Virus record (IMG/VR): IMGVR_UViG_3300031454_000255
Location: 1,779-65,778 of that record
Reading direction: 5' to 3' (one strand)
Source: a virus
Length of the DNA: 64,000 nt
The translations under genes were made by a program, and so were the position numbers. The notes under the pieces were generated by a model. That model was not told the DNA's origin. It did not search any database and worked only from the letters and a program-made list of their open reading frames with translations. Each line of letters starts with the position of its first letter. Position 1 is the first letter of the stretch. Of this stretch, positions 2,424-27,452 are shown piece after piece.

Positions 2424-5400
2424 TCAAACCGTTGACGACCCGCCGCCGTCAACTATAATCCTTTTGTTATTATGCACGGCAAACCCGCCCGCGAAATATG
2501 TGTGATTTTTAAGGACGTGCAGATTATAAACCTTCACCGCGCCTTTAATATAAACGCGCTCAATGAATTTTAATTCTTCAAGCCTATCGCCGTTTTTGAC
2601 GAAGACGCTTTGATTTTCTTGCAAATCTTGAAGCGCAACAAATTCATTTTTTGCCGTTAAAAACGGGTGTTCGCCCGTAACGCACAAAACCTGCCCGCCG
2701 GGGAAACGCGCCTCAAAGTATCCTTTCGACGCGTGTTCGAGCGTGGCGGCAACTGTGTCAATTTCAATATCAAAAGTTTGCGGGTTGAAACTGTAAATTA
2801 AATCACCGCTGCGTATTTTATCGAGTCTTAAAAGTCCGCCTTGTGTTTCGATTAAAGTATCACCGGTAAAACATTCGCCGCCGCCCGCCGTTGTGCCGCC
2901 CGTTGTGCCGCCCGTTGTGCCGCCGCCGCCGCCCGCCGGAGGTGTCGGGTCAACAGCTGTTCCGCCCGTGCCGTCCGCCGCCGCGAAAGTAATATCGATA
3001 ATATTTGACCACGCGCCGAATTCGACATTGTTCGATGAATGCGCGACGCGGACAAAGCGCGTCTCGCTGGTCGCTAAATTCGCCGTTCTCGATAAAGTGA
3101 CGACGGGCGTTAAAATCAGTCCGACTTCATTTTGCGCCGAATGGATAAATTCAGACGGGCTGACAAAAGTGTTCAATGCCGCCGTCTGCACTTTTCTAAA
3201 TTGCGCGCCCGTCCCGTAATTAGTCACGGACACATTAACGCTTCTGTTTGTTGCCGTGCCCGATTGGTATATAACCGGCGCGTTCTGTTCGGTATTCGTT
3301 CCGGCGTTGGTGACAACGGGGAGCGGCACGATTTTTTCCCTAATTTGATCGTCAGAAAATTTGCGGTGGTATTTACGCCCCGACATTCCGATTTGCGCAA
3401 AACCGTTTTGGTCGCGAATTCCTAAATCGGACAATCGAATCAGCGCGTTGACAAAACGCCCGGATTCTTCGGTCACGGCAATCACGTCGGCTTCCTCTAG
3501 CAATAGTGCTTCCCCGTCGCTGGAAAATCCTGTATAGGTGTCGGCGTCGCGCAATTCCGCCAGCCTCTGCTGCGCGATACGCATCATTTGATTATATGAA
3601 TCAATCGCCGCGCCGTTGATCGTCACGGGATTAACCTTTTTAACCTTTTTGATGTGCGCTTTGTCTTTGAGACGGCTTTTCGTCAATTTAAAATCCTGCG
3701 ACGCATCCCTCCAATCAATATCTATCGCGTTCGTCGTCGGCTGATCGCCGCCCAAATTAAACTCGAAACTACCGCTTAAAATATTCGACCCGCGCAAGTT
3801 TGCCGCCCTGGATGTTTTGTCGGCAAACGCCATCGCAACGTGCGTGATTTCCGCCGCCGTTTCGTTCAATGCGGGTTCATCGGGATCATCGTAAAGCGGC
3901 AATTTATCAATCGTAAAAGCCCCCCCGCGATTTTCTCTGACAAACCGCGTTCTGATGCCGTTCGCCTCAATCGAGCAATAAGTTCGCACAGAGATAATGC
4001 GCGCAGACAAGGTAATCGCGGCGACGCTGATGTTTTGATTGGCGGCGAGTGTGATAGCGGCAAGCGGTGACGTTAATGTTTCGCCTTCGACTGTGATGAA
4101 CGAACGGCAAACCTGATAAACGCCCGCCGCCAGAGTTCCGCCCGCCGCCGCCGTCAAAATCGGCGCGCTAGCCGGATTATCGATTGCGGTTTCGTGAATG
4201 TATTGGAGCGGCGTGTCGAGCGTCAAATATCCGGCGCGGCTCGAAACCAGAACGGTTGACGCGCCTGCCGTCCAAGCCGCTTTGACGCGCTTGTTTAAAT
4301 AGTTATGTGAATTTATCAAAGCGGCGAGCCAGCCCGCAACCGTCGCTGTCGTGTCGCCCCCGACCGGATTATAAACAAGCCGGTAATTGTCAATCGTGAC
4401 AGTTTTCGCGCCCGCCGCATTTGAGACTGTCAATGTCACCGACGGCGGCGCGGTATCGGTACCATTCGCTAAAGTCGCAGATGAGCTTGCCGCGCCGCCG
4501 CCTGCCGTAATTGTGACGCTCGAAGCTACATACCGAAACGCCGTCACCATTCGGACTTCGGACGTTCCTAAATTCGAGCCGACGACGATTCTTGTTCGAT
4601 TGCTGCGAAAAGGATTAATATTTTCAACAAAGATTTCAGACGCATTTGCCGCAGTTGCTGCTTTTATAAAAGTAAAGTCAGCCGGTTTCATTACTTTGAC
4701 GGCTATTTTACCGCTTGCCTTTTGCGTTAGATAGCCGTTAAAAGATGCGAAAATGACATCGTAAAGAAAATCGAAGGCTTTCGTCTGCTCATTGATTATC
4801 ACGTTCGTCGTGTAGCGTTTGCGGAAATAGACGGGCGGCGTTTGATAATCGGGCAAACCCGAACCGTTCAAATCGTCGCCGATAAGCGGCGGGTCGTCGT
4901 AAAAATTGTAATCGACCTCCTCCAAATACTCGCCGTTGTTAAACGCGCCCCCGGCGCGGTTCGTAAAATAGCGCGGATTGAGCCTTGCAGTCGATAAATA
5001 GTTGCGGTAAGCCGCGCCAGCCAGCCCGATTTGCGAGGCGTCGTATTGCACGACTTCGGAATTTGAATTGTCGGTCAAAACGTGGTCATTGTAATCAGCC
5101 GTCTCCAGAGTGTCATTGTCATCAAGCCACGCCGGGTCAAGATTGAAAACGTCCGGCGAATTTATAAACCACCGCGAGATAATCGCGCCGTTTGCCGACA
5201 TTTGGGAAAGCGTGAATAAGCCGGACGCATCCGGGCAGGGCATTTTAAGTCCTAAAATTACCCCGACAATCGAAGGCGCGGCGTCGTCGACGTCAATCAA
5301 AGTGCCGGTTGATTTACCCCGCACGTAAGCCGTCCGCGAATAAATACCCGACGCGATAAAAGCCGGGTCGTCGTTGATCTGGCTGCCCGTGCCGCCCAAT

Positions 5401-6056
5401 TGCCCTATTTTTGGCAAAACCGGCAAACCCGTAATATGCGACGTATAACTGCCGTCGGTAAAGTCGGTGAACGTAAAACCGGGCGTGACCGAACGCAAAT
5501 TCTCGATGCCCTCAATCTCGCCTTCGCACGCAATCGCTAAAAATTGAATCTCTAAGCCGGTGTCGGCGGAGGCGAAATTGGTCAACTCCATCTGCGCTCT
5601 GCCGAACACATACGGCAGATACTTGCTGGCATTGGCGTCCGAGTGCGAAGACCACTGCAAAGTCTGTTTGACCGGTTTCTTGAGTCCGAGAAGCCCCAAA
5701 ATCCCACCGCGTTTTACTTTACTTTTAAATTCAAAAGCACCGTTTCGCGCTTCATAACGAAAGCCTTCATACAGCGGGTCTGAAGGCACCCTGCCCGTGA
5801 TGTCGTCGGGAGAGAATGTCCGGCGCGGCAAATTAACTTCCACTTGGTCAAGAATCTGTTTAACGCCGATTGTCACGGTCTCGCTCGACTTTTTGAACGT
5901 GTTCGGTTTTTGGCAGCGACCTGTAAACTCGACAATCGTGTCTTCTAAGTTGACGGACACGCCTCTGTCAAGAATTCTAATCACGCAAATCAAGCCCTCA
6001 AAGCCTAAAACTCTTTCTATATCCGCAACCCTGATTTTTACTTTTGTTGTCGCCAT
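2424..6056 (-). CDS. Tail-tip/host-specificity (lambda J-like) protein with C-terminal Hint domain
   Basis: About 1210 aa, last gene of the tail operon. Putative tail-protein segment (FEFNLGGDQPTTNAIDIDWRDASQDF...ALLLEEADVIAVT), Gly/Thr linker, then a Hint domain. The ATG at 6056 is preferred because the track's 6098 start lies inside the leader hairpin. Confidence 0.8.
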   Translation of the reverse strand: MATTKVKIRVADIERVLGFEGLICVIRILDRGVSVNLEDTIVEFTGRCQKPNTFKKSSETVTIGVKQILDQVEVNLPRRTFSPDDITGRVPSDPLYEGFRYEARNGAFEFKSKVKRGGILGLLGLKKPVKQTLQWSSHSDANASKYLPYVFGRAQMELTNFASADTGLEIQFLAIACEGEIEGIENLRSVTPGFTFTDFTDGSYTSHITGLPVLPKIGQLGGTGSQINDDPAFIASGIYSRTAYVRGKSTGTLIDVDDAAPSIVGVILGLKMPCPDASGLFTLSQMSANGAIISRWFINSPDVFNLDPAWLDDNDTLETADYNDHVLTDNSNSEVVQYDASQIGLAGAAYRNYLSTARLNPRYFTNRAGGAFNNGEYLEEVDYNFYDDPPLIGDDLNGSGLPDYQTPPVYFRKRYTTNVIINEQTKAFDFLYDVIFASFNGYLTQKASGKIAVKVMKPADFTFIKAATAANASEIFVENINPFRSNRTRIVVGSNLGTSEVRMVTAFRYVASSVTITAGGGAASSSATLANGTDTAPPSVTLTVSNAAGAKTVTIDNYRLVYNPVGGDTTATVAGWLAALINSHNYLNKRVKAAWTAGASTVLVSSRAGYLTLDTPLQYIHETAIDNPASAPILTAAAGGTLAAGVYQVCRSFITVEGETLTSPLAAITLAANQNISVAAITLSARIISVRTYCSIEANGIRTRFVRENRGGAFTIDKLPLYDDPDEPALNETAAEITHVAMAFADKTSRAANLRGSNILSGSFEFNLGGDQPTTNAIDIDWRDASQDFKLTKSRLKDKAHIKKVKKVNPVTINGAAIDSYNQMMRIAQQRLAELRDADTYTGFSSDGEALLLEEADVIAVTEESGRFVNALIRLSDLGIRDQNGFAQIGMSGRKYHRKFSDDQIREKIVPLPVVTNAGTNTEQNAPVIYQSGTATNRSVNVSVTNYGTGAQFRKVQTAALNTFVSPSEFIHSAQNEVGLILTPVVTLSRTANLATSETRFVRVAHSSNNVEFGAWSNIIDITFAAADGTGGTAVDPTPPAGGGGGTTGGTTGGTTAGGGECFTGDTLIETQGGLLRLDKIRSGDLIYSFNPQTFDIEIDTVAATLEHASKGYFEARFPGGQVLCVTGEHPFLTAKNEFVALQDLQENQSVFVKNGDRLEELKFIERVYIKGAVKVYNLHVLKNHTYFAGGFAVHNNKRIIVDGGGSSTV
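2469..2873 (-). other. Hint (intein-like autoprocessing) domain
   Basis: Begins CFTGDTLI, has the block-B TGEHPF motif and ends VYNLHVLKNHTYFAGGFAVHN. Preceded by (GGTT)x3, encoded by a 12-bp tandem repeat near 2889-2922. Confidence 0.9.
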
Positions 6057-6205
6057 TTTAATTAAAATAGAAAAGCCCGCCGATAATTCAGCGGGCAAGA
6101 AGCGAAGCTAAATCTAACGGCGGGCGGGAAAGTCTTTAAGAAAAGAGTTTCGAGACCCTTATTCAGTTGTGGTTATTATAAACTAAATACCAATAAAAAC
6201 AAGGT
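6057..6205 (-). promoter_or_regulatory. Leader A: sigma70-like promoter, GGGTCT box, terminator-like hairpin
   Basis: TTGTTT-16-TATAAT, then GGGTCTCG, then hairpin GCCCGCTG-AATTAT-CGGCGGGC-TTTTCT just before the ATG at 6056. An upstream GCCCGCCG could pair with the same 3' arm. Confidence 0.65.
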
Positions 6206-6256
6206 TTATTTGAAAATTGGACTGTTACTTTAAGACTATATTTAGTAAAATATAGT

Positions 6257-7018
6257 ATGCTTTTAATTAAAAATTGCGAGACTTGTCACCAAGAGTTTTC
6301 TAGAAAAACAGGATACAGTTATAAATATTGGAACACGCAAAGATTCTGCTCTTCAAAATGCAGGTCTATTGCCATCGGTAAATTATTAAGCATAAAATTC
6401 AGTCAAAAAATAAATTTAGTCTGCCAATCCTGTCATATCTCTTTTTCAGTTTCACCCTGCCAATCGAAGCAAAAATATTGTTCGAGAAAATGCCAGCCGA
6501 GGTCGGTAAATGTTTTTGGGCATTGTCCGAATCGCGCAATAGTTTTTAGAACTTGCCCGAATTGCGAGAAAGTGTATAGCGGAAGTAATAATAGATATTG
6601 CTCAATACAATGCAAAAAGCAAGGAGTTAAAATTCAGAGAGCCGCAAAAGCAATGAAAGGCGAAGAACTTAAAATGGCAAAAAGAGTTTATGCCTCAAAC
6701 AGACGCTCAAAAATAATCGCAAACGGCGGCAGTTTTACAAAAGAGCAATGGAGATTAAAGTTAGAATATTTCGGCAATCGCTGCTATCTATGCAGTAAAA
6801 CCGTAACTGAAAAAACCGCCCATATCGAACATCGAATTCCTATCAGTAAAGGCGGCAAGTCTTGGGTTTCCAATCTTGCGCCCTCTTGCGCTAGCTGCAA
6901 TTTCAAAAAAAACCGTAAAACAGAAAAAGAATTTAGAGAGATTTACAATCTCAAATCCGCGCTAACTGTCGCTCGATTTCACCAACCCGTCGAAGCAATG
7001 CCCGCCGCTCATCAATAA
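6257..7018 (+). CDS. HNH endonuclease with N-terminal CxxC...FCSxxC zinc repeats
   Basis: C-terminal CYLC...HIEHRIPISKGGKSWVSNLAPSCASCNFKK; AT-rich and antisense to the tail operon. Confidence 0.85.
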   Translation: MLLIKNCETCHQEFSRKTGYSYKYWNTQRFCSSKCRSIAIGKLLSIKFSQKINLVCQSCHISFSVSPCQSKQKYCSRKCQPRSVNVFGHCPNRAIVFRTCPNCEKVYSGSNNRYCSIQCKKQGVKIQRAAKAMKGEELKMAKRVYASNRRSKIIANGGSFTKEQWRLKLEYFGNRCYLCSKTVTEKTAHIEHRIPISKGGKSWVSNLAPSCASCNFKKNRKTEKEFREIYNLKSALTVARFHQPVEAMPAAHQ

Positions 7019-7118
7019 GCCTTTGCTTTTTTGGTTTTTGGGAGTCAACAATTTTCCGCCTTAATAAACGCTTTTTCTCTTCGATAATAACTGGAGTGTT
7101 AGAATCTAAGTTATCCAC
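6951..7118 (-). CDS. Small basic protein, 55 aa (peptide family copy 1; not in ORF track)
   Basis: Manual translation from GTG: MDNLDSNTPVIIEEKKRLLRRKIVDSQKPKKQRLIDERRALLRRVGEIERQLARI. Start overlaps the stop of 7111..7572. Shares NLDSN and RR...EI.R.L with 35533..35730. Confidence 0.6.
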   Translation of the reverse strand: MDNLDSNTPVIIEEKKRLLRRKIVDSQKPKKQRLIDERRALLRRVGEIERQLARI

Positions 7119-7572
7119 CGTTCTTTAACCACCTTAATATCGCGCCATCTAAAGACTCTCCGTCTTCAATGTCAATTTCAAATGTCGAATTCGAGAGCGT
7201 GAAAGACGCGCCCGATAATTCTTTGCGATAGGTGCGCTTTATTTCCGACACATCCGTCATCAGCCGTTTGTAGGAACGCCCGCGAAACGTCACGCCGTCT
7301 GTTTTTGCGAATCCCATTAAAAAGTTGGGATTTTGAGGGCAAGGACAAAAACCCACAACGGAAGAATTTAAAACGCTAGCAGTTTCTGTAACTTGAGTTT
7401 GATTTTCTGTAACCGGAATTGCATTTTCTGTAACTATCACTTGCGCTGTTTGGCAAGCGCAAAGCGAAGGAAATGTGTCACTTTTGTACAATTCTACCAC
7501 CCACGATTGCCTTTTAGCAGTCGCGTTGCCAGAGGTGAGGACAGTGAGCAAATTGTCAGAAACGGTTTGCAT
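7111..7572 (-). CDS. Minor tail protein; probable N-terminal half of the split tail-tip gene
   Basis: MQTVSDNLL...GVTFRGRSYKRLMTDVSEIKR...ASFTLSN resembles the start of siphovirus tail-tip/hub proteins. The continuation (FEGLICVIRILDR) begins the 6056 ORF. Confidence 0.55.
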   Translation of the reverse strand: MQTVSDNLLTVLTSGNATAKRQSWVVELYKSDTFPSLCACQTAQVIVTENAIPVTENQTQVTETASVLNSSVVGFCPCPQNPNFLMGFAKTDGVTFRGRSYKRLMTDVSEIKRTYRKELSGASFTLSNSTFEIDIEDGESLDGAILRWLKNGG

Positions 7573-7582
7573 TGATTTTGAG

Positions 7583-10321
7583 TTATGCCGCGACGTGAGT
7601 GACCGTGCCGTCGGCGTTGAATACCAATTTACGCCCGTCAATCGCCCAACCAATCTGCGGCTGTGTTGAAACAAGATGAATCACGCCGGTCGCCGCATCG
7701 CGGTAAACCATCATTCCGTGACCGTTTGCTTCAATTAATTCAAGCTGCGGTCGACCGCCGTCCGGTGAAACAATGCTGCGAACCGGTTGTTTCTTATTAA
7801 CAAAGTTCGTTGCCCGGCTGTTGTATTCGGGGGCATTAGCTAAAAGTGGATCGAGAACGTCCCGCTGGTAGCGGTTGCGGGATTCAATGTAACTGCCGCG
7901 GTCGCTCCGCGTGATAAAATCCGAAACCGAACCGGCAGACCATCGCGTCGCGTTATGGGTAGCCAAATCGCTTCCGCCCGCTTCCGGTCGATTGAGAAAG
8001 TAGTCATTCGCGCTGATAATGCCCGCGCCCGCGCCCGGCACGTCTTCAAATGTGCCGTAAGTCGGACCGCAAACATAAAGATTATCGTGAGTGATAAAGG
8101 TCATAGCCGCGCCGAAAAACACTTTCGACTGAACCAAGGTGCCGCCTTCGACGATAAAACCGCCGCGAGTAAACGCGCCGCCCGCTTTATTCAGGAAAAA
8201 CTCCATTCGTTCATCTTGCCCGCCATTAACACGAATTGTATTAAAGACGTTTGTGCTTCTGATAAATGTCGTTCCGTTTGCCACTCTGCCCGTCACGGGC
8301 GAATATGCCGATCCTAAAGTACCGATCGTGTGATGCGAGTTGATTTCCAAATAGCCCGCTTCCAAAACATCGTAAGCGATGCCGCCGTCCGGCACATAGG
8401 AAAACGGCGTGTTGAATATAACCGAGTTATTTACAGAATTAGACCGATAGCCGATTGAATTAAGATCGAAAATCGGTTCATTAAAAACCATATTTTCGAC
8501 TTCCATATCCGTTCCCGATGTCGGGTAATAATCGACGCCGACGCCCGCGCCTTTAAACCAGCAGCGATTGTAAACAACATTAAAAATCGGATTCATACCG
8601 GTTAATAAAATTAACGACGTGCCGGTTGTCGATACCGATTCAAGACGCATATCTGAAAAGACGTTGTTTTTCCATTGCGGGTCGGTATTGGCGGCATCTG
8701 ATTGAATCTTAAACAGGGATGTTCCGGCCAGCATTGACCGAAAGCCGGTCGTTCTCTGACTTCCGCCCTCCATCATTATGCCCTGCGGCATCGTATGCCC
8801 GCCGTTTGTCTGCCACATTCCGTCCGGAACGTAACCCCGCGTGCCGGGTCTTAAAGCTGCAATCCAGCTATCTATCGCCGCCGTATTCTGCGCGGTCGTG
8901 CCGCCGCCGGAAATGTAATTCCCTAAATTAACAACCGGCATTCCGGCTTTCGATTGAACGTAAGTAGTCAAGGACGCGTTATCTGCCGCCGCGCCGCCGA
9001 GAGTCGCAAAAGTTGACGTACCCGTGCCGCTGCCAGCCGGACCGGTCGCACCCTGAATTCCTTGCGGTCCCTGCGCTCCGGTCGCGCCTTTGATGTTGGC
9101 GACAACCGAGTAACTGCCGCTCGTTTGTCTGTAAACGTCGCCGTTCAGGTTATTAAGCCAGAAATCACCGTCGACATTATTGGTTGGCGGTGCGCCGCTA
9201 CCGGCTCGCCAAACGGCTCCGGGAGCGCCTGCTGGTCCAACCGTTCCGGTGCCGGTGCCTGAGCCCGCCGGACCCGTTGCGCCTTGAATTCCCTGCGGTC
9301 CTTGCGCGCCTGCTGCACCTTTAATATTAGCGACGACCCCGTAGTTGCCGTTCGTTTGTTTATAGACATCGCCATTCAAATTATTTAACCAGTAATCGCC
9401 GTTAGCGTGATTGGTTGGCGGAGGACCATCACCATTGCGCCAAACGGCGCCGGGAGTTCCCGCCGCGCCCTGCGGTCCGGCTGCACCGCTCCCCGACGCG
9501 GCAAACAGTCCGTTAAGTCGGGCGGCTAAAGAATTGCCCGTGTCCGGTGAGATAACTGCCGATGCCTGTAATTCGTTGGGCGCGACACCTGTTCCGAGCA
9601 TCCGAATCGAGGTAGTATCGGTATGCAAAACGCCTGATGTTCCGCTGCCCGTTCCCGCCGCGCCCTGGTAGTTTTTCCACAGTCCGGCGAAATCCGCCGC
9701 CGCCGGTGCATTGATTGCCGCTGCGCTCGTTTTGATAGCAATATAGTTTTTCGCCGCGCTGAAGGTTGTCGTAAAACCTGTGCCGTTTGCGTCGTCGGCA
9801 TAAGCGATATAAATATAAGCCGGAATGCCCTTTGCGCCTTTAATATTGGCGACGACTTGATACGAGTTAGGACCGCCAAGCTGCTTGTAGACGTCGCCGT
9901 TCAAATTGTTGAGCCAGTAATCGCCGTCGGCGTGATTAGTCGGCGGCGGACCGTCCCCATTGCGCCATACCGTTCCTGTACCGCCCGGACCGCCTGCCGG
10001 AATCGTATATGTTCCGATGCCGTTTAAGAATTTCAATGCGTCATTCGGCAGCTTCGGCGCGAAACCGTGCTTTGCCGTCGACACGTCATTGGTTACAACA
10101 TCGGTAATTGCAAGCGAAACATCAGTTGCCGTGCCGCTTCCGCCGCCGCCGATTATGTTCCAGCCCGAATTTGACGAATTACGAACTTTTCGCGTAATTG
10201 GTGATGTCGACGTGTCGTTCCATTCGATGCCGGCGCGAATCAGACTGCCCGTCGGCTCCGTCGCCTGGTTATACGCGCTCGGGTGAAGCGAATTCAATTC
10301 GTGATGTTCTATAAATGCCAT
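7583..10321 (-). CDS. Tail fibre/spike with collagen-like repeats and C-terminal beta-helix (pectate-lyase-like) domain
   Basis: GAQGPQGIQGATGPAG repeats, three VWRxGxGxPPTN..DGDYWLNNLNGDVY modules, and the GGGTTAQNTAAIDSWIAAL...YVPDGMW beta-helix start. Confidence 0.8.
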   Translation of the reverse strand: MAFIEHHELNSLHPSAYNQATEPTGSLIRAGIEWNDTSTSPITRKVRNSSNSGWNIIGGGGSGTATDVSLAITDVVTNDVSTAKHGFAPKLPNDALKFLNGIGTYTIPAGGPGGTGTVWRNGDGPPPTNHADGDYWLNNLNGDVYKQLGGPNSYQVVANIKGAKGIPAYIYIAYADDANGTGFTTTFSAAKNYIAIKTSAAAINAPAAADFAGLWKNYQGAAGTGSGTSGVLHTDTTSIRMLGTGVAPNELQASAVISPDTGNSLAARLNGLFAASGSGAAGPQGAAGTPGAVWRNGDGPPPTNHANGDYWLNNLNGDVYKQTNGNYGVVANIKGAAGAQGPQGIQGATGPAGSGTGTGTVGPAGAPGAVWRAGSGAPPTNNVDGDFWLNNLNGDVYRQTSGSYSVVANIKGATGAQGPQGIQGATGPAGSGTGTSTFATLGGAAADNASLTTYVQSKAGMPVVNLGNYISGGGTTAQNTAAIDSWIAALRPGTRGYVPDGMWQTNGGHTMPQGIMMEGGSQRTTGFRSMLAGTSLFKIQSDAANTDPQWKNNVFSDMRLESVSTTGTSLILLTGMNPIFNVVYNRCWFKGAGVGVDYYPTSGTDMEVENMVFNEPIFDLNSIGYRSNSVNNSVIFNTPFSYVPDGGIAYDVLEAGYLEINSHHTIGTLGSAYSPVTGRVANGTTFIRSTNVFNTIRVNGGQDERMEFFLNKAGGAFTRGGFIVEGGTLVQSKVFFGAAMTFITHDNLYVCGPTYGTFEDVPGAGAGIISANDYFLNRPEAGGSDLATHNATRWSAGSVSDFITRSDRGSYIESRNRYQRDVLDPLLANAPEYNSRATNFVNKKQPVRSIVSPDGGRPQLELIEANGHGMMVYRDAATGVIHLVSTQPQIGWAIDGRKLVFNADGTVTHVAA
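9090..9970 (-). repeat. Three dispersed ~40-aa repeats plus duplicated collagen-like spacers within the fibre gene
   Basis: Repeat consensus VWRNGDGPPPTNHA(D/N)GDYWLNNLNGDVYKQ...Y.VVANIKGA; synonymous differences between copies are visible in the DNA. Confidence 0.9.
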
Positions 10322-18409: not shown

Positions 18410-18575
18410 GCAAAAAGAAAAACACCCGCTCAAGAAATGAAATAAATCCATTTCTTGAGCGGGTGTTTAGTTCCTTTTCGGAAGTGCAGACCCTTTTATT
18501 AAATTTTATGCGTTTAGACGAAAAGCGTTTTGCCTAAACTGTAAGAAGTATAATAGTTTTTTTGATTATCTACAA
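18410..18575 (-). promoter_or_regulatory. Leader B: promoter, GGGTCTGCAC box, small hairpin, strong terminator-like hairpin
   Basis: TTGTAG-17-TATACT; GGGTCTGCACTTCC-GAAAA-GGAA; ACACCCGCTCAAGAAATG...CATTTCTTGAGCGGGTGT-TTTTCTTTTT. Confidence 0.75.
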
Positions 18576-19571: not shown

Positions 19572-20087
19572 ATGGACAAGATAACACGAAAGAAATTAGA
19601 AAAGAAACACGGACAAATAAAAATTTGCTTTACCTGCGGAAAACCCAAAGCCCTTTTTGATTTTTATAAATCTTCATATTGGGTAAGCAACAAAGGCAAT
19701 CCGGTTGTTAAATACGCCGTTCACCGAAATTGTAAGATATGTGAACGAAAACAAACAACTTCCAAACGAACCTCGCCCGCAAAAACTCGCCAACCGCGCC
19801 CGATTATGAGTTTTGAAGATACTCAAATCGCAAAGCGCAATAATTTATTAAAACGTAAATACGGCATTACGCTTGACCGATACAACGAATTTTTAGAACG
19901 GCAAAACGGCGGCTGCGCGATTTGCGGCGAACCGCCGACAACTCAAATTTTAGTTGTTGACCATTGCCACAAATCCGGCAAGATTCGCGGTCTGCTCTGT
20001 CATAAACATAATTCGGCAATCGGATTCTTAAACGACAGCCCAGAACTAATCAAAAAAGCAAACGAGTATTTGGGAGAGGCGAAATGA
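19572..20087 (+). CDS. Endonuclease VII-like HNH nuclease
   Basis: LKRKYGITLDRYNEFLERQNGGCAICG...LVVDHCHKSGKIRGLLCHKHNSAIG. Confidence 0.85.
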   Translation: MDKITRKKLEKKHGQIKICFTCGKPKALFDFYKSSYWVSNKGNPVVKYAVHRNCKICERKQTTSKRTSPAKTRQPRPIMSFEDTQIAKRNNLLKRKYGITLDRYNEFLERQNGGCAICGEPPTTQILVVDHCHKSGKIRGLLCHKHNSAIGFLNDSPELIKKANEYLGEAK

Positions 20088-20524
20088 AAATTTGTAGCAA
20101 CTGCCGACTACCAAAACCGCTAAAAATGTTCGTCGTCAAAAGATGCGGTGTTTGGGCTTATATCGAGAGATGTAAGCCCTGCCGCGCCGCCTCGAAACCT
20201 TTCCGCAAGTTCTGGAAACCATTAACGCCGGAACAGCGCGAACGAAATCGAATGGCGAGCCGCGCCAGAAAATTAAATTGCTCTGTGATTATTCCTTTTA
20301 CAAAAAGAGAAATAATTTTTCGTGACGGGTTGAATTGTTATTTATGCGGGAAATTATTGACTGAAAAAACCGCAACTATCGACCACGTTAAGCCGTTATC
20401 GCGCGGCGGTTTTCATTGTCCGAATAACGCAAAAATCGCCTGCAAACCTTGTAATCAAAAGAAAACTAATAAAGAATTATCGGAGTGCTGTGATGAATTT
20501 AATCAAAAAACTAACATTGCTTAA
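20084..20524 (+). CDS. HNH endonuclease
   Basis: IFRDGLNCYLCG...TIDHVKPLSRGGFHCPNNAKIACKPCNQKK. Confidence 0.85.
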   Translation: MKICSNCRLPKPLKMFVVKRCGVWAYIERCKPCRAASKPFRKFWKPLTPEQRERNRMASRARKLNCSVIIPFTKREIIFRDGLNCYLCGKLLTEKTATIDHVKPLSRGGFHCPNNAKIACKPCNQKKTNKELSECCDEFNQKTNIA

Positions 20525-22025
20525 AATTGAAGGTGAATTGGTCAAAACTTGCAATCGCTGTAAAAGACATTTACCATCGCATTTTTTTTCCAAAATAAAC
20601 AATCCTAAAAGAGAGTGCGAGAAAGACGGGCTTGCAATTAGTTGTTTTGATTGTGCAAGACTGCGTTCGGCGAAATGGCGAGAAGAAAAAAAAGGTGCAG
20701 TTGGTTTGGTTGCTTTAACCCAAAAGAAAATTGAACTTGAAAGATATTTAGTTGCCAATCCGCACCTGTTCTGGTGTGTTAAAGGTCAACACGTTTCTGA
20801 AAAAGAAAACGTTACCATAGCAAATCGAAATTCGAGTGGTTTAGGTTCAATTTGTAAAAATTGCAAAAAACAATTTTACAAAATAAATCCTGAGTATTCC
20901 AAAATTTACTACCAAAACAATAAAGCGCAAGTATTGGAAGCAAGCAAAGAATACAGTAAAAACAATCAAGCAAAAATTGCGAAAATGAGAAAGAATTGGG
21001 TTTTGGCAAACCCTGATAAAGTTAGAGCTTCAATAGAAAGAAGCGTTAAAGTTAGAGCGGAAAAAAGAAGAAAAGTAAGTGAAGAATTAAAGTCCATTCG
21101 TATCTTAAAGAAAAAAACAATCAAAGAAAAAACTTGCTCTAAGTGTAATAACATTCTTTCTATTGAAAACTTTCGTAGCAATACAAATATATGTAAAGAT
21201 TGCAAAAAAAACGCTGATTATGAAAGAATAATGAAAAAATTACCCGTTACTGTTGCTGAAGAGAGATGCCAAAAACACACTGAAAAAAAAGCTCGTGACA
21301 AATATATTTTAGCAAACCCTAGTATTAAATGGTGTGAGAAAGGAAAGCATTTTGTGTGTCGAAGTGAATTTTATAGTGCAGCAAAACGTAAAGATGGTTT
21401 AATGACGACTTGTCAGTCTTGTTTGAAAAAATACATCAATCAAAATATTGAAGTAGTTAAAAAACGGCGAAAATCTTACTATGCCCGAAACCGAGATTTG
21501 ATTATTAAACGAAGTTATTTAAATTACAAACAAAACAAATATAAAATATTAGGACGACAAAAAGCATATAATCAGGTAAATAAAGACACTATTCAACAAA
21601 GAAAAAAACATTATTACCAAAATAACTTTGCTAATAATGAGGAATACCGAGCCAAAACGCGGGCATATCGTGAAAAACACGCCCAAAGAATTTCTGTATA
21701 TAAACAACGAGGATTCGCAAAACTTCGCTCCGTTCGGCAAAACATTAAAGGCGAATTCTCGCTCGACCAATGGTTGTTAAAAATTGAGTTTCACGGTTAC
21801 TGTTGTTATCTTTGCGGTAAATCACTCCAGGGTAAAAAGTTTCATCTTGAACATAGAATACCATTAAGCAGAGGCGGAACAAATTTCTTGGCGAATGTTG
21901 CGCCCTCGTGTGTTAGGTGTAACCTAAGCAAAGGGAACAAAACCGAATTTGAATTTCGGGAATGGAAAAAACAAAACCCAAAACTACGCAGTAAAACCGA
22001 ACTTATTTCCGCCTTCCGCAATTAG
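20490..22025 (+). CDS. Large HNH endonuclease with multiple CxxC zinc modules
   Basis: Repeated CxxC modules, an internal repeat (YLVANPHLFWCVKGQHV / YILANPSIKWCEKGKHFV), and C-terminal CYLCG...HLEHRIPLSRGG...PSCVRCNLSKG. Confidence 0.85.
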   Translation: MMNLIKKLTLLKIEGELVKTCNRCKRHLPSHFFSKINNPKRECEKDGLAISCFDCARLRSAKWREEKKGAVGLVALTQKKIELERYLVANPHLFWCVKGQHVSEKENVTIANRNSSGLGSICKNCKKQFYKINPEYSKIYYQNNKAQVLEASKEYSKNNQAKIAKMRKNWVLANPDKVRASIERSVKVRAEKRRKVSEELKSIRILKKKTIKEKTCSKCNNILSIENFRSNTNICKDCKKNADYERIMKKLPVTVAEERCQKHTEKKARDKYILANPSIKWCEKGKHFVCRSEFYSAAKRKDGLMTTCQSCLKKYINQNIEVVKKRRKSYYARNRDLIIKRSYLNYKQNKYKILGRQKAYNQVNKDTIQQRKKHYYQNNFANNEEYRAKTRAYREKHAQRISVYKQRGFAKLRSVRQNIKGEFSLDQWLLKIEFHGYCCYLCGKSLQGKKFHLEHRIPLSRGGTNFLANVAPSCVRCNLSKGNKTEFEFREWKKQNPKLRSKTELISAFRN

Positions 22026-27299: not shown

Positions 27300-27452
27300 A
27301 AACGAAAAACACCCGCTAAAAATGAACGGTTGTTCAAATCTAGCGGGTGTCGAGTTTCTAAAAAGAAAGTGCAGACCCTTCGTTAAAATTTTTACCTAAA
27401 GACGCGCTTTAAGTTCACTGTTAATTTACCGCAAAAAACAGAAATTAGCAAG
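27300..27452 (-). promoter_or_regulatory. Leader C: promoter, GGGTCTGCAC box, small hairpin, terminator-like hairpin
   Basis: TTGCTA-17-TAAATT; GGGTCTGCAC-TTTCT-TTTT-AGAAA; ACACCCGCTAG...TAGCGGGTGT-TTTTC. Confidence 0.75.

Follow-up and report, generated by a model that had tools for sequence, protein, structure and literature searches.

We analyzed a stretch of 64,000 nucleotides (hereafter called the window), which corresponds to positions 1,779 to 65,778 of the IMG/VR virus record IMGVR_UViG_3300031454_000255 and makes up most of this 66-kb provirus record. Our focus was on a predicted tail hub gene that is present in two pieces, which are separated by an HNH endonuclease gene encoded on the opposite strand. 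In the window, the tail genes are located on the minus strand. The open reading frame (ORF) upstream of the hub encodes a fibre-like protein of 912 amino acids and ends at 7583; the first hub piece starts at 7572, ten bases past this end.

Hub piece 1 (7111..7572, minus strand) consists of 153 codons, begins with MQTVS, and contains ASFTLSNSTFEI. Codons 1-133 (7174..7572, minus strand) are homologous to the hub family, and codons 134-153 (7114..7173, minus strand) form a junction-specific tail, DIEDGESLDGAILRWLKNGG, with a net charge of -3, followed by the stop codon (7111..7113, minus strand). A missed-cleavage peptide of piece 1 that includes the tail would span ...IEDGESLDGAILR. Hub piece 2 (2424..6056, minus strand) encodes 1210 amino acids and begins with MATTKVKIRVADIERVLGFEGLICV. 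Its codons 1-9 (6030..6056, minus strand), which encode MATTKVKIR, represent a junction-specific leader with a charge of +3, and family sequence is found from V10 (6029) on, on the same strand. The inserted block, counted from the last family codon of piece 1 to the first one of piece 2, comprises 1144 bp (6030..7173). It harbors the HNH endonuclease gene (6257..7018, plus strand, 253 amino acids), which is antisense to the hub gene; the convergent stops of this gene and of piece 1 are separated by a spacer of 92 bp (7019..7110). A perfect inverted repeat of 9+4+9 bp (ACTATATTT AGTA AAATATAGT; 6235..6256, plus strand) is located at the HNH start. Closer to piece 2, we found a terminator-like structure (6064..6125, minus strand), composed of a GC-rich 9-bp stem (6096..6075), which is extendable with 6125..6115, and then TTTTCTATTTT.

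With residues 1-500 of the long ORF as the query, we retrieved 25 homologues, mostly of 1250-1400 amino acids; the set of uninterrupted homologues is P0004-P0028 plus P0031. The first ~95 residues of the homologues match the small ORF, and the proteins then continue in frame into the opening of the long ORF (...LSNSTREVVDFERATGFEGLICV...). A profile of the homologue N-termini matched the small ORF up to approximately position 93-106 and the long ORF from position 91. In a BLASTP comparison with the homologue from an Aridibacter metagenome-assembled genome (MAG), residues 79-133 of the small ORF corresponded to residues 39-93 and residues 10-100 of the long ORF to residues 93-183, and both pieces meet at residue 93 of this homologue. 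In the window, the family sequence ends after I133 of piece 1 (7174) and resumes at V10 of piece 2 (6029).

The same picture emerged from bacterial genomes, in which the hub is one ORF through the junction at six of six loci (~1040-1500 amino acids, one cut by the contig end). Five of these loci belong to Acidobacteriota (Aridibacter, Blastocatellia, Pyrinomonadaceae, and others) and one to a Gammaproteobacteria MAG; given this origin, the host of the phage is probably an Acidobacteriota bacterium. None of the homologues recovered whole carries an HNH gene inside the hub gene, and all of them are single proteins. The homologous site is hence polymorphic for the presence or absence of the HNH gene, which is found here and absent in all homologues recovered whole. 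The endonuclease ORF lies between the pieces on the opposite strand and is fused in frame to neither, and each piece has its own stop or start, i.e. the tail of 20 amino acids with the stop at 7111 and the ATG at 6056 with the leader of nine amino acids. Judged from these alignments, one tail-hub gene is split between the small ORF, its front part, and the long ORF, which holds the remainder. This corroborates the original prediction, made from the nucleotide sequence alone, that the two ORFs are halves of one gene broken at this place. The uninterrupted homologues by which it proposed to check this exist, both as proteins and at the six genome loci, and HNH-free homologues encoded as two proteins, which it had named as the opposing case, did not occur among those recovered whole.

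Close relatives of either piece or of the HNH protein were found neither in the phage collection nor in the IMG/VR searches. A hub search of 401 Acidobacteriota genomes gave matches in the query genome only, and a protein search with the first 100 amino acids of piece 2 at longer lengths returned only two matches, both already known. The gene order varies among relatives (L005, 2372..11918; L008, 786..3130; L015, 4161..6993). In the Aridibacter prophage, the hub comes after the tape measure and small tail genes, a lambda-like order, and a beta-helix or fibre gene is located directly before the hub in the window and at loci L008 and L015.

The identity of the protein was addressed with an AlphaFold2 (AF2) model of the N-terminal 520 amino acids of the Aridibacter homologue (predicted local distance difference test, pLDDT, 87.5; predicted template modeling score, pTM, 0.80), which was compared with known structures; those of T5 pb3 and of lambda gpL and gpJ are PDB entries 7zqp, 8iyk, and 8xcg. 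Over residues 1-520, the model matched the T5 baseplate hub protein pb3 (7zqp_b) with a Z score of 17.9 and 421 aligned residues. Residues 1-155 matched lambda gpL (Z 13.3) and residues 250-520 the N-terminus of lambda gpJ (Z 10.8). According to the model, the protein is a pb3-type siphovirus tail hub, equivalent to a gpL-gpJ fusion, which fits the label "tail tip" that had been given to the gene from its sequence. The similarity concerns the fold of the N-terminal 520 residues; sequence identity to T5 pb3, gpL, and gpJ is just 12-18%, the hub family studied here often ends in a Hint domain, and the window encodes the first domain in two pieces. At the sequence level, the window protein scored 20.4 bits against PF13550 (Phage-tail_3), below the gathering cut-off of 23 (a weak match at residues 755-866 of piece 2); a precomputed PF13550 match is listed for most homologues. 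The C-terminal Hint domain of piece 2 covers residues 1068-1197 (2466..2855); it was recognized as PT-HINT (1e-10) and is followed by ~13 residues. A Hint domain (PF07591) is also present in homologues P0006, P0009, P0013, P0015, and P0016, and others, e.g. P0044, are without it.

According to the model, residue 93 is located in the tube-like first domain, between the strand at 81-87 and the helix at 92-99. Piece 1 would contribute one helix and four strands to this domain, with the following helix and the other strands coming from piece 2. The cut is positioned inside the gpL-like domain (1-155), away from the boundary between the L- and J-like parts near residue 250. Since it lies inside one domain, a working protein would need this domain to be rebuilt from two chains.

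The product of the HNH ORF matches PF14279 (3e-13), PF01844 (1e-8), and phrog_1271 (3e-21). Its N-terminal part contains three CxxC...CxxxC zinc-finger-like repeats, and an HNH_5 domain (residues 176-228) is located at the C-terminus; the catalytic HNH domain is predicted to be intact, with the DNA-binding module located N-terminally. The insert is foreign by its GC content, which is 37.7% (6030..7173) compared to 45-53% in the flanking hub sequence and 54% in the upstream fibre gene. A second nuclease island (19572..22025), located on the plus strand among minus-strand tail genes, has a GC content of 36.8%, close to that of the hub insert, and contains genes for two HNH_5 proteins and one protein with an endonuclease VII domain. 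The closest in-genome paralogue of the hub-splitting HNH protein is part of this island. As it is only 49% identical over the HNH domain, the hub cassette is not a fresh internal copy. Candidate transposon ends or target-site duplications around the insert turned out to be short repeats at chance level (D12, I10). The palindrome at 6235..6256 extends right up to the HNH start codon, and in the fold of 6030..6256 it forms the first hairpin; it could represent an operator, a translation-masking hairpin, or a leaderless or masked start control of the HNH gene. A TAAAAT box lies 5 nt ahead of the HNH ATG.

The two junction peptides, i.e. the tail of 20 amino acids of piece 1 (-3) and the leader of nine amino acids of piece 2 (+3), carry opposite charges. 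Neither shows significant homology to the hub family, and we treat both as probable products of the insertion. One may speculate that their opposite charges matter for assembly. MAFFT and family hidden Markov model (HMM) alignments had placed the tail on the start of piece 2, suggesting a duplicated segment with an overlap of ~25 amino acids, a candidate that failed shuffling tests. When the tail was compared with the piece 2 start by Smith-Waterman, 758 of 5000 shuffles reached its score, the alignment did not outperform shuffles at the nucleotide level, and 292 of 1000 shuffled tails reached at least the HMM score of the tail. The beta-strand that AF2 assigned to the tail was alignment-driven and is not counted as evidence. 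Piece 1 contains in addition a loop insertion of ~42 amino acids (7338..7464, minus strand; residues ~37-78), which is unique to this copy and falls into an alignment gap in all homologues. It is characterized by a CxC...CxC pattern, a VTEN-type 21-nt tandem repeat at 7383..7424, a GC content of 41%, and a pLDDT below 50 in the AF2 model. This loop may either stem from a second, small insertion of foreign DNA or serve in metal binding.

Regarding expression, the downstream half had originally been credited with a promoter of its own, a claim that found no support. A terminator-like hairpin with a T-run on the hub strand directly precedes piece 2 and ends 18 nt before its ATG (6056), and no convincing promoter for piece 2 was found; weak sigma-70-like matches are confined to the antisense HNH gene. 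The AT-rich leader without a Shine-Dalgarno sequence before piece 2 resembles other gene starts in the phage. Moreover, terminator-like hairpins with T-runs are located directly upstream of other ORFs or gene starts (~32220..32260, 27313..27360, and 18426..18470 (minus)). This distribution suggests that the late region may be read through terminators, and the pattern of a hairpin before a gene would fit a late operon that is read with antitermination.

At the protein level, we noticed hints of further split hubs. P0044 (1035 amino acids, from an NCBI contig of 61,851 nt) opens with M-VDFEEATGFEG at the same junction; P0008 is the JGI call of P0044 with a start 31 codons later. P0032 (97 amino acids) is a hub N-terminus that ends about 9 residues before the junction. 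The closest relative of the HNH protein is P0034 (42% identity, 435 amino acids), which has the same domain layout with more zinc-finger repeats. For P0032 as well as for P0034, a single Logan contig is reported, in both cases 50,748 nt long, and given this identical length the two are likely located on one contig. If so, a related endonuclease would lie beside a hub that is broken nearly alike, in a phage that is only ~45% identical; such a linkage would argue for site-specific homing and for the viability of the split. P0044/P0008 and P0032 are possible further pieces of split hubs, known from protein sequences alone. P0030 (149 amino acids) was considered as a second split as well and rejected, as the hub at its locus, L015, is truncated at ~117 with no C-terminal piece downstream. 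At this locus (6544..6993), the truncated hub is joined to a sequence of ~33 codons that recurs at 70-94% identity and is found on at least 10 other contigs (L016-L025) of the same metagenome series; this shared sequence probably marks where a repeated mobile element ends, or else an attachment site.

It is known that phage enzyme genes can be fragmented by homing endonuclease genes and that the resulting pieces remain functional. By analogy with the "genes in pieces" of the Aeh1 nrdA/mobE type, we consider it moderately probable that the two hub polypeptides are separately translated and subsequently assembled. According to this reading, a free-standing HNH homing-endonuclease cassette of ~1.14 kb and 38% GC would have entered the hub gene of a siphovirus-type prophage in antisense orientation, behind codon 93 as numbered in the homologue, within the tube-like first domain and between a beta-strand and the next helix. 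From the cassette, the front piece would have gained a stop after 20 further codons, and the rear piece an in-frame ATG nine codons ahead of the point where the sequence resumes, and the split gene would yield two polypeptides of 153 and 1210 amino acids. Most likely, these would be translated independently from a late polycistronic mRNA, which would be transcribed through the hairpin. The divided domain would be rebuilt by fragment complementation, possibly aided by the oppositely charged junction peptides, and the HNH protein would presumably be active in homing. The split hub is likely functional.

The closest precedent is nrdA of phage Aeh1 (Friedrich et al. 2007; Crona et al. 2011, PMC3045599). 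There, too, a free-standing HNH-family gene lies inside an essential gene that is a single ORF in relatives, the break separates neighbouring secondary-structure elements within one domain, and through the insertion one piece gained a C-terminal tail and the other an N-terminal leader. The GC content of the insert is likewise below that of its surroundings, and no intron or intein is involved. In the nrdA-a/mobE/nrdA-b arrangement, the pieces are active and the insertion-created tails are essential for activity; the NrdA barrel is cut between adjacent strands and rebuilt from two chains (PMC3045599). The two systems differ in that NrdA is an enzyme and the hub a virion structural protein, in that mobE is in sense orientation and overlaps nrdA-b whereas the endonuclease gene described here is antisense, and in the architecture of the HNH protein, which here combines an N-terminal zinc-finger array with a C-terminal HNH_5 domain. 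Furthermore, the split product is known to be active in Aeh1, whereas for the hub a function is predicted.

T4 gene 39/60 and gene 43 of phage 25 are further split phage genes (PMC2988022). As in the window, separately translated pieces flank a free-standing homing endonuclease gene at the break (mobA in T4 39/60 and a seg-like gene in phage 25 43A/43B). In contrast to the hub, the products of these genes are replication enzymes, the endonuclease genes have the same orientation as the genes they split, and T4 gene 60 additionally involves translational bypassing (PMC2988022). ICP1 is comparable in that HNH genes interrupt its morphogenesis genes for the tape measure and the large terminase, and in that its genome contains several nuclease islands (Barth, Dunham and Seed 2023, PMC10448857). 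The pieces of the two ICP1 genes are spliced at the RNA level, as seen by RNA-seq, whereas the insert in the window has no intron signature and its endonuclease gene is antisense (PMC10448857). An HNH-fragmented phage gene is hence of a known kind; what is unusual here is the target, a virion hub cut within one domain, and the antisense orientation of the endonuclease gene.

Several points weigh against separate translation and assembly of the two hub pieces. A strong terminator-like hairpin is predicted between them with no convincing promoter after it. The stop and the in-frame ATG at the junction could have arisen by chance in AT-rich DNA, for which we estimate ~20-40% for a start before a stop. 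A cut through a single domain, as placed by the model, would be structurally demanding. In addition, phage structural genes with introns that bear homing endonuclease genes exist, e.g. the ICP1 tape measure and terminase genes (PMC10448857). The restriction of the candidate further split hubs to protein sequences also counts on this side, as does the completeness estimate of 73% for the provirus record, with which the hub gene could be dead.

Of the alternatives, the one that fares best, although we regard it as unlikely, assumes such a dead gene: the cassette would have landed in the hub of an already decaying prophage, and the ORFs would be recent remnants that do not give rise to a working tail tip. 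The status of the record as a 73% complete provirus, the hairpin right before piece 2 with no clear promoter after it, and the possibility that the junction stop and start signals are due to chance are all consistent with this scenario, and so is relative L015, in which the hub is simply truncated at residue ~117. However, the two pieces contain no further stop or frameshift in 1363 codons. Piece 1 also shows no excess divergence. The ratio of N- to C-terminal identity is 0.83 for the split hub and 0.73-1.14 for intact relatives, indicating that piece 1 is no more diverged in its sequence than the same part in intact relatives. The nearest in-genome HNH paralogue, at just 49% identity, speaks against a recent hop within a silent prophage, and the hints of the same junction in diverged relatives likewise count against decay. 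If the gene were dead, the locus would represent ordinary prophage decay by a mobile element.

Quite improbable is an unrecognized self-splicing group I-like intron with an antisense HNH gene, in which case the spliced mRNA would give one continuous hub. Introns with homing endonuclease genes do interrupt the phage tape measure and terminase genes of ICP1 and came to light there only by RNA-seq (PMC10448857). At the locus, the best-fitting exon ends are formally compatible with group I rules, as the 5' cut would follow a T (..GAA ATT/) and the 3' cut a G (..ATC AGG/GTT), and recurrence at a single site would also be expected from intron homing. The 227 nt on the 3' side (6030..6256) are strongly structured (z -4.7), but this structure is made up of the terminator-like hairpin and the palindrome over the HNH start and contains no ribozyme core. 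On the 5' side, the minus-strand RNA of 7019..7175 (157 nt) is unstructured (z +0.9). Rfam intron families, Intron_gpI and group II included, gave no match at E <= 10, neither in the 2.5-kb region as a whole nor in the two non-coding flanks searched separately. These results agree with the initial inspection by eye, in which no group I or group II intron hallmarks had been seen. The endonuclease ORF is, moreover, antisense to the hub gene, unlike the sense-oriented endonuclease ORFs of known phage introns; in T4, all homing endonuclease genes except the free-standing segD lie in sense orientation (PMC2988022).

A natural two-gene hub, with the HNH gene in ordinary intergenic space, would resemble lambda, which divides the same structural unit between gpL and gpJ, but is very improbable, as the cut at residue 93 lies in the gpL-like domain (1-155) and not at the boundary near 250 and every homologue recovered whole runs continuously through the junction. 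A fractured gene as defined by Dassa et al. (2009), in which split-intein halves on the pieces are ligated by protein trans-splicing, matches the order of N-terminal piece, free-standing endonuclease gene, and C-terminal piece known for that class (PMC2677866), and the hub protein has a Hint domain, though at its far C-terminus; nevertheless, it is scarcely credible and, from the sequence, close to refuted: the junction peptides comprise just 20 and 9 amino acids, with no initial Cys/Ser in the tail and no terminal His-Asn plus Cys/Ser/Thr in the leader, and the Pfam intein/Hint matches are at residues 1060-1197 of piece 2, away from the junction.

Returning to separately translated hub pieces that assemble after translation, the hints from other phages allow for a broader, tentative picture. 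Perhaps, although this is doubtful, a family of HNH proteins with zinc-finger arrays homes just upstream of the GFEGLICV motif in the hubs of Acidobacteriota phages. In that case, hubs in two pieces would arise repeatedly and be passed on (the window, P0032 plus P0034, and P0044), and tail tips would consist of fragments that are joined through beta-strand complementation and the oppositely charged junction peptides. To our knowledge, there is no earlier case of a virion structural protein that is assembled from endonuclease-fragmented pieces.

The hub is a trimeric structural part of the tail that has to dock to both tape measure and distal tail ring and has to open during infection. If the two pieces assemble, a single tube-like tail-tip domain would tolerate a chain break, which would provide an example of natural fragment complementation in a virion. 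In this case, selfish endonuclease genes would also reach the host-recognition hardware of phages, here in little-studied phages from soil and rock.

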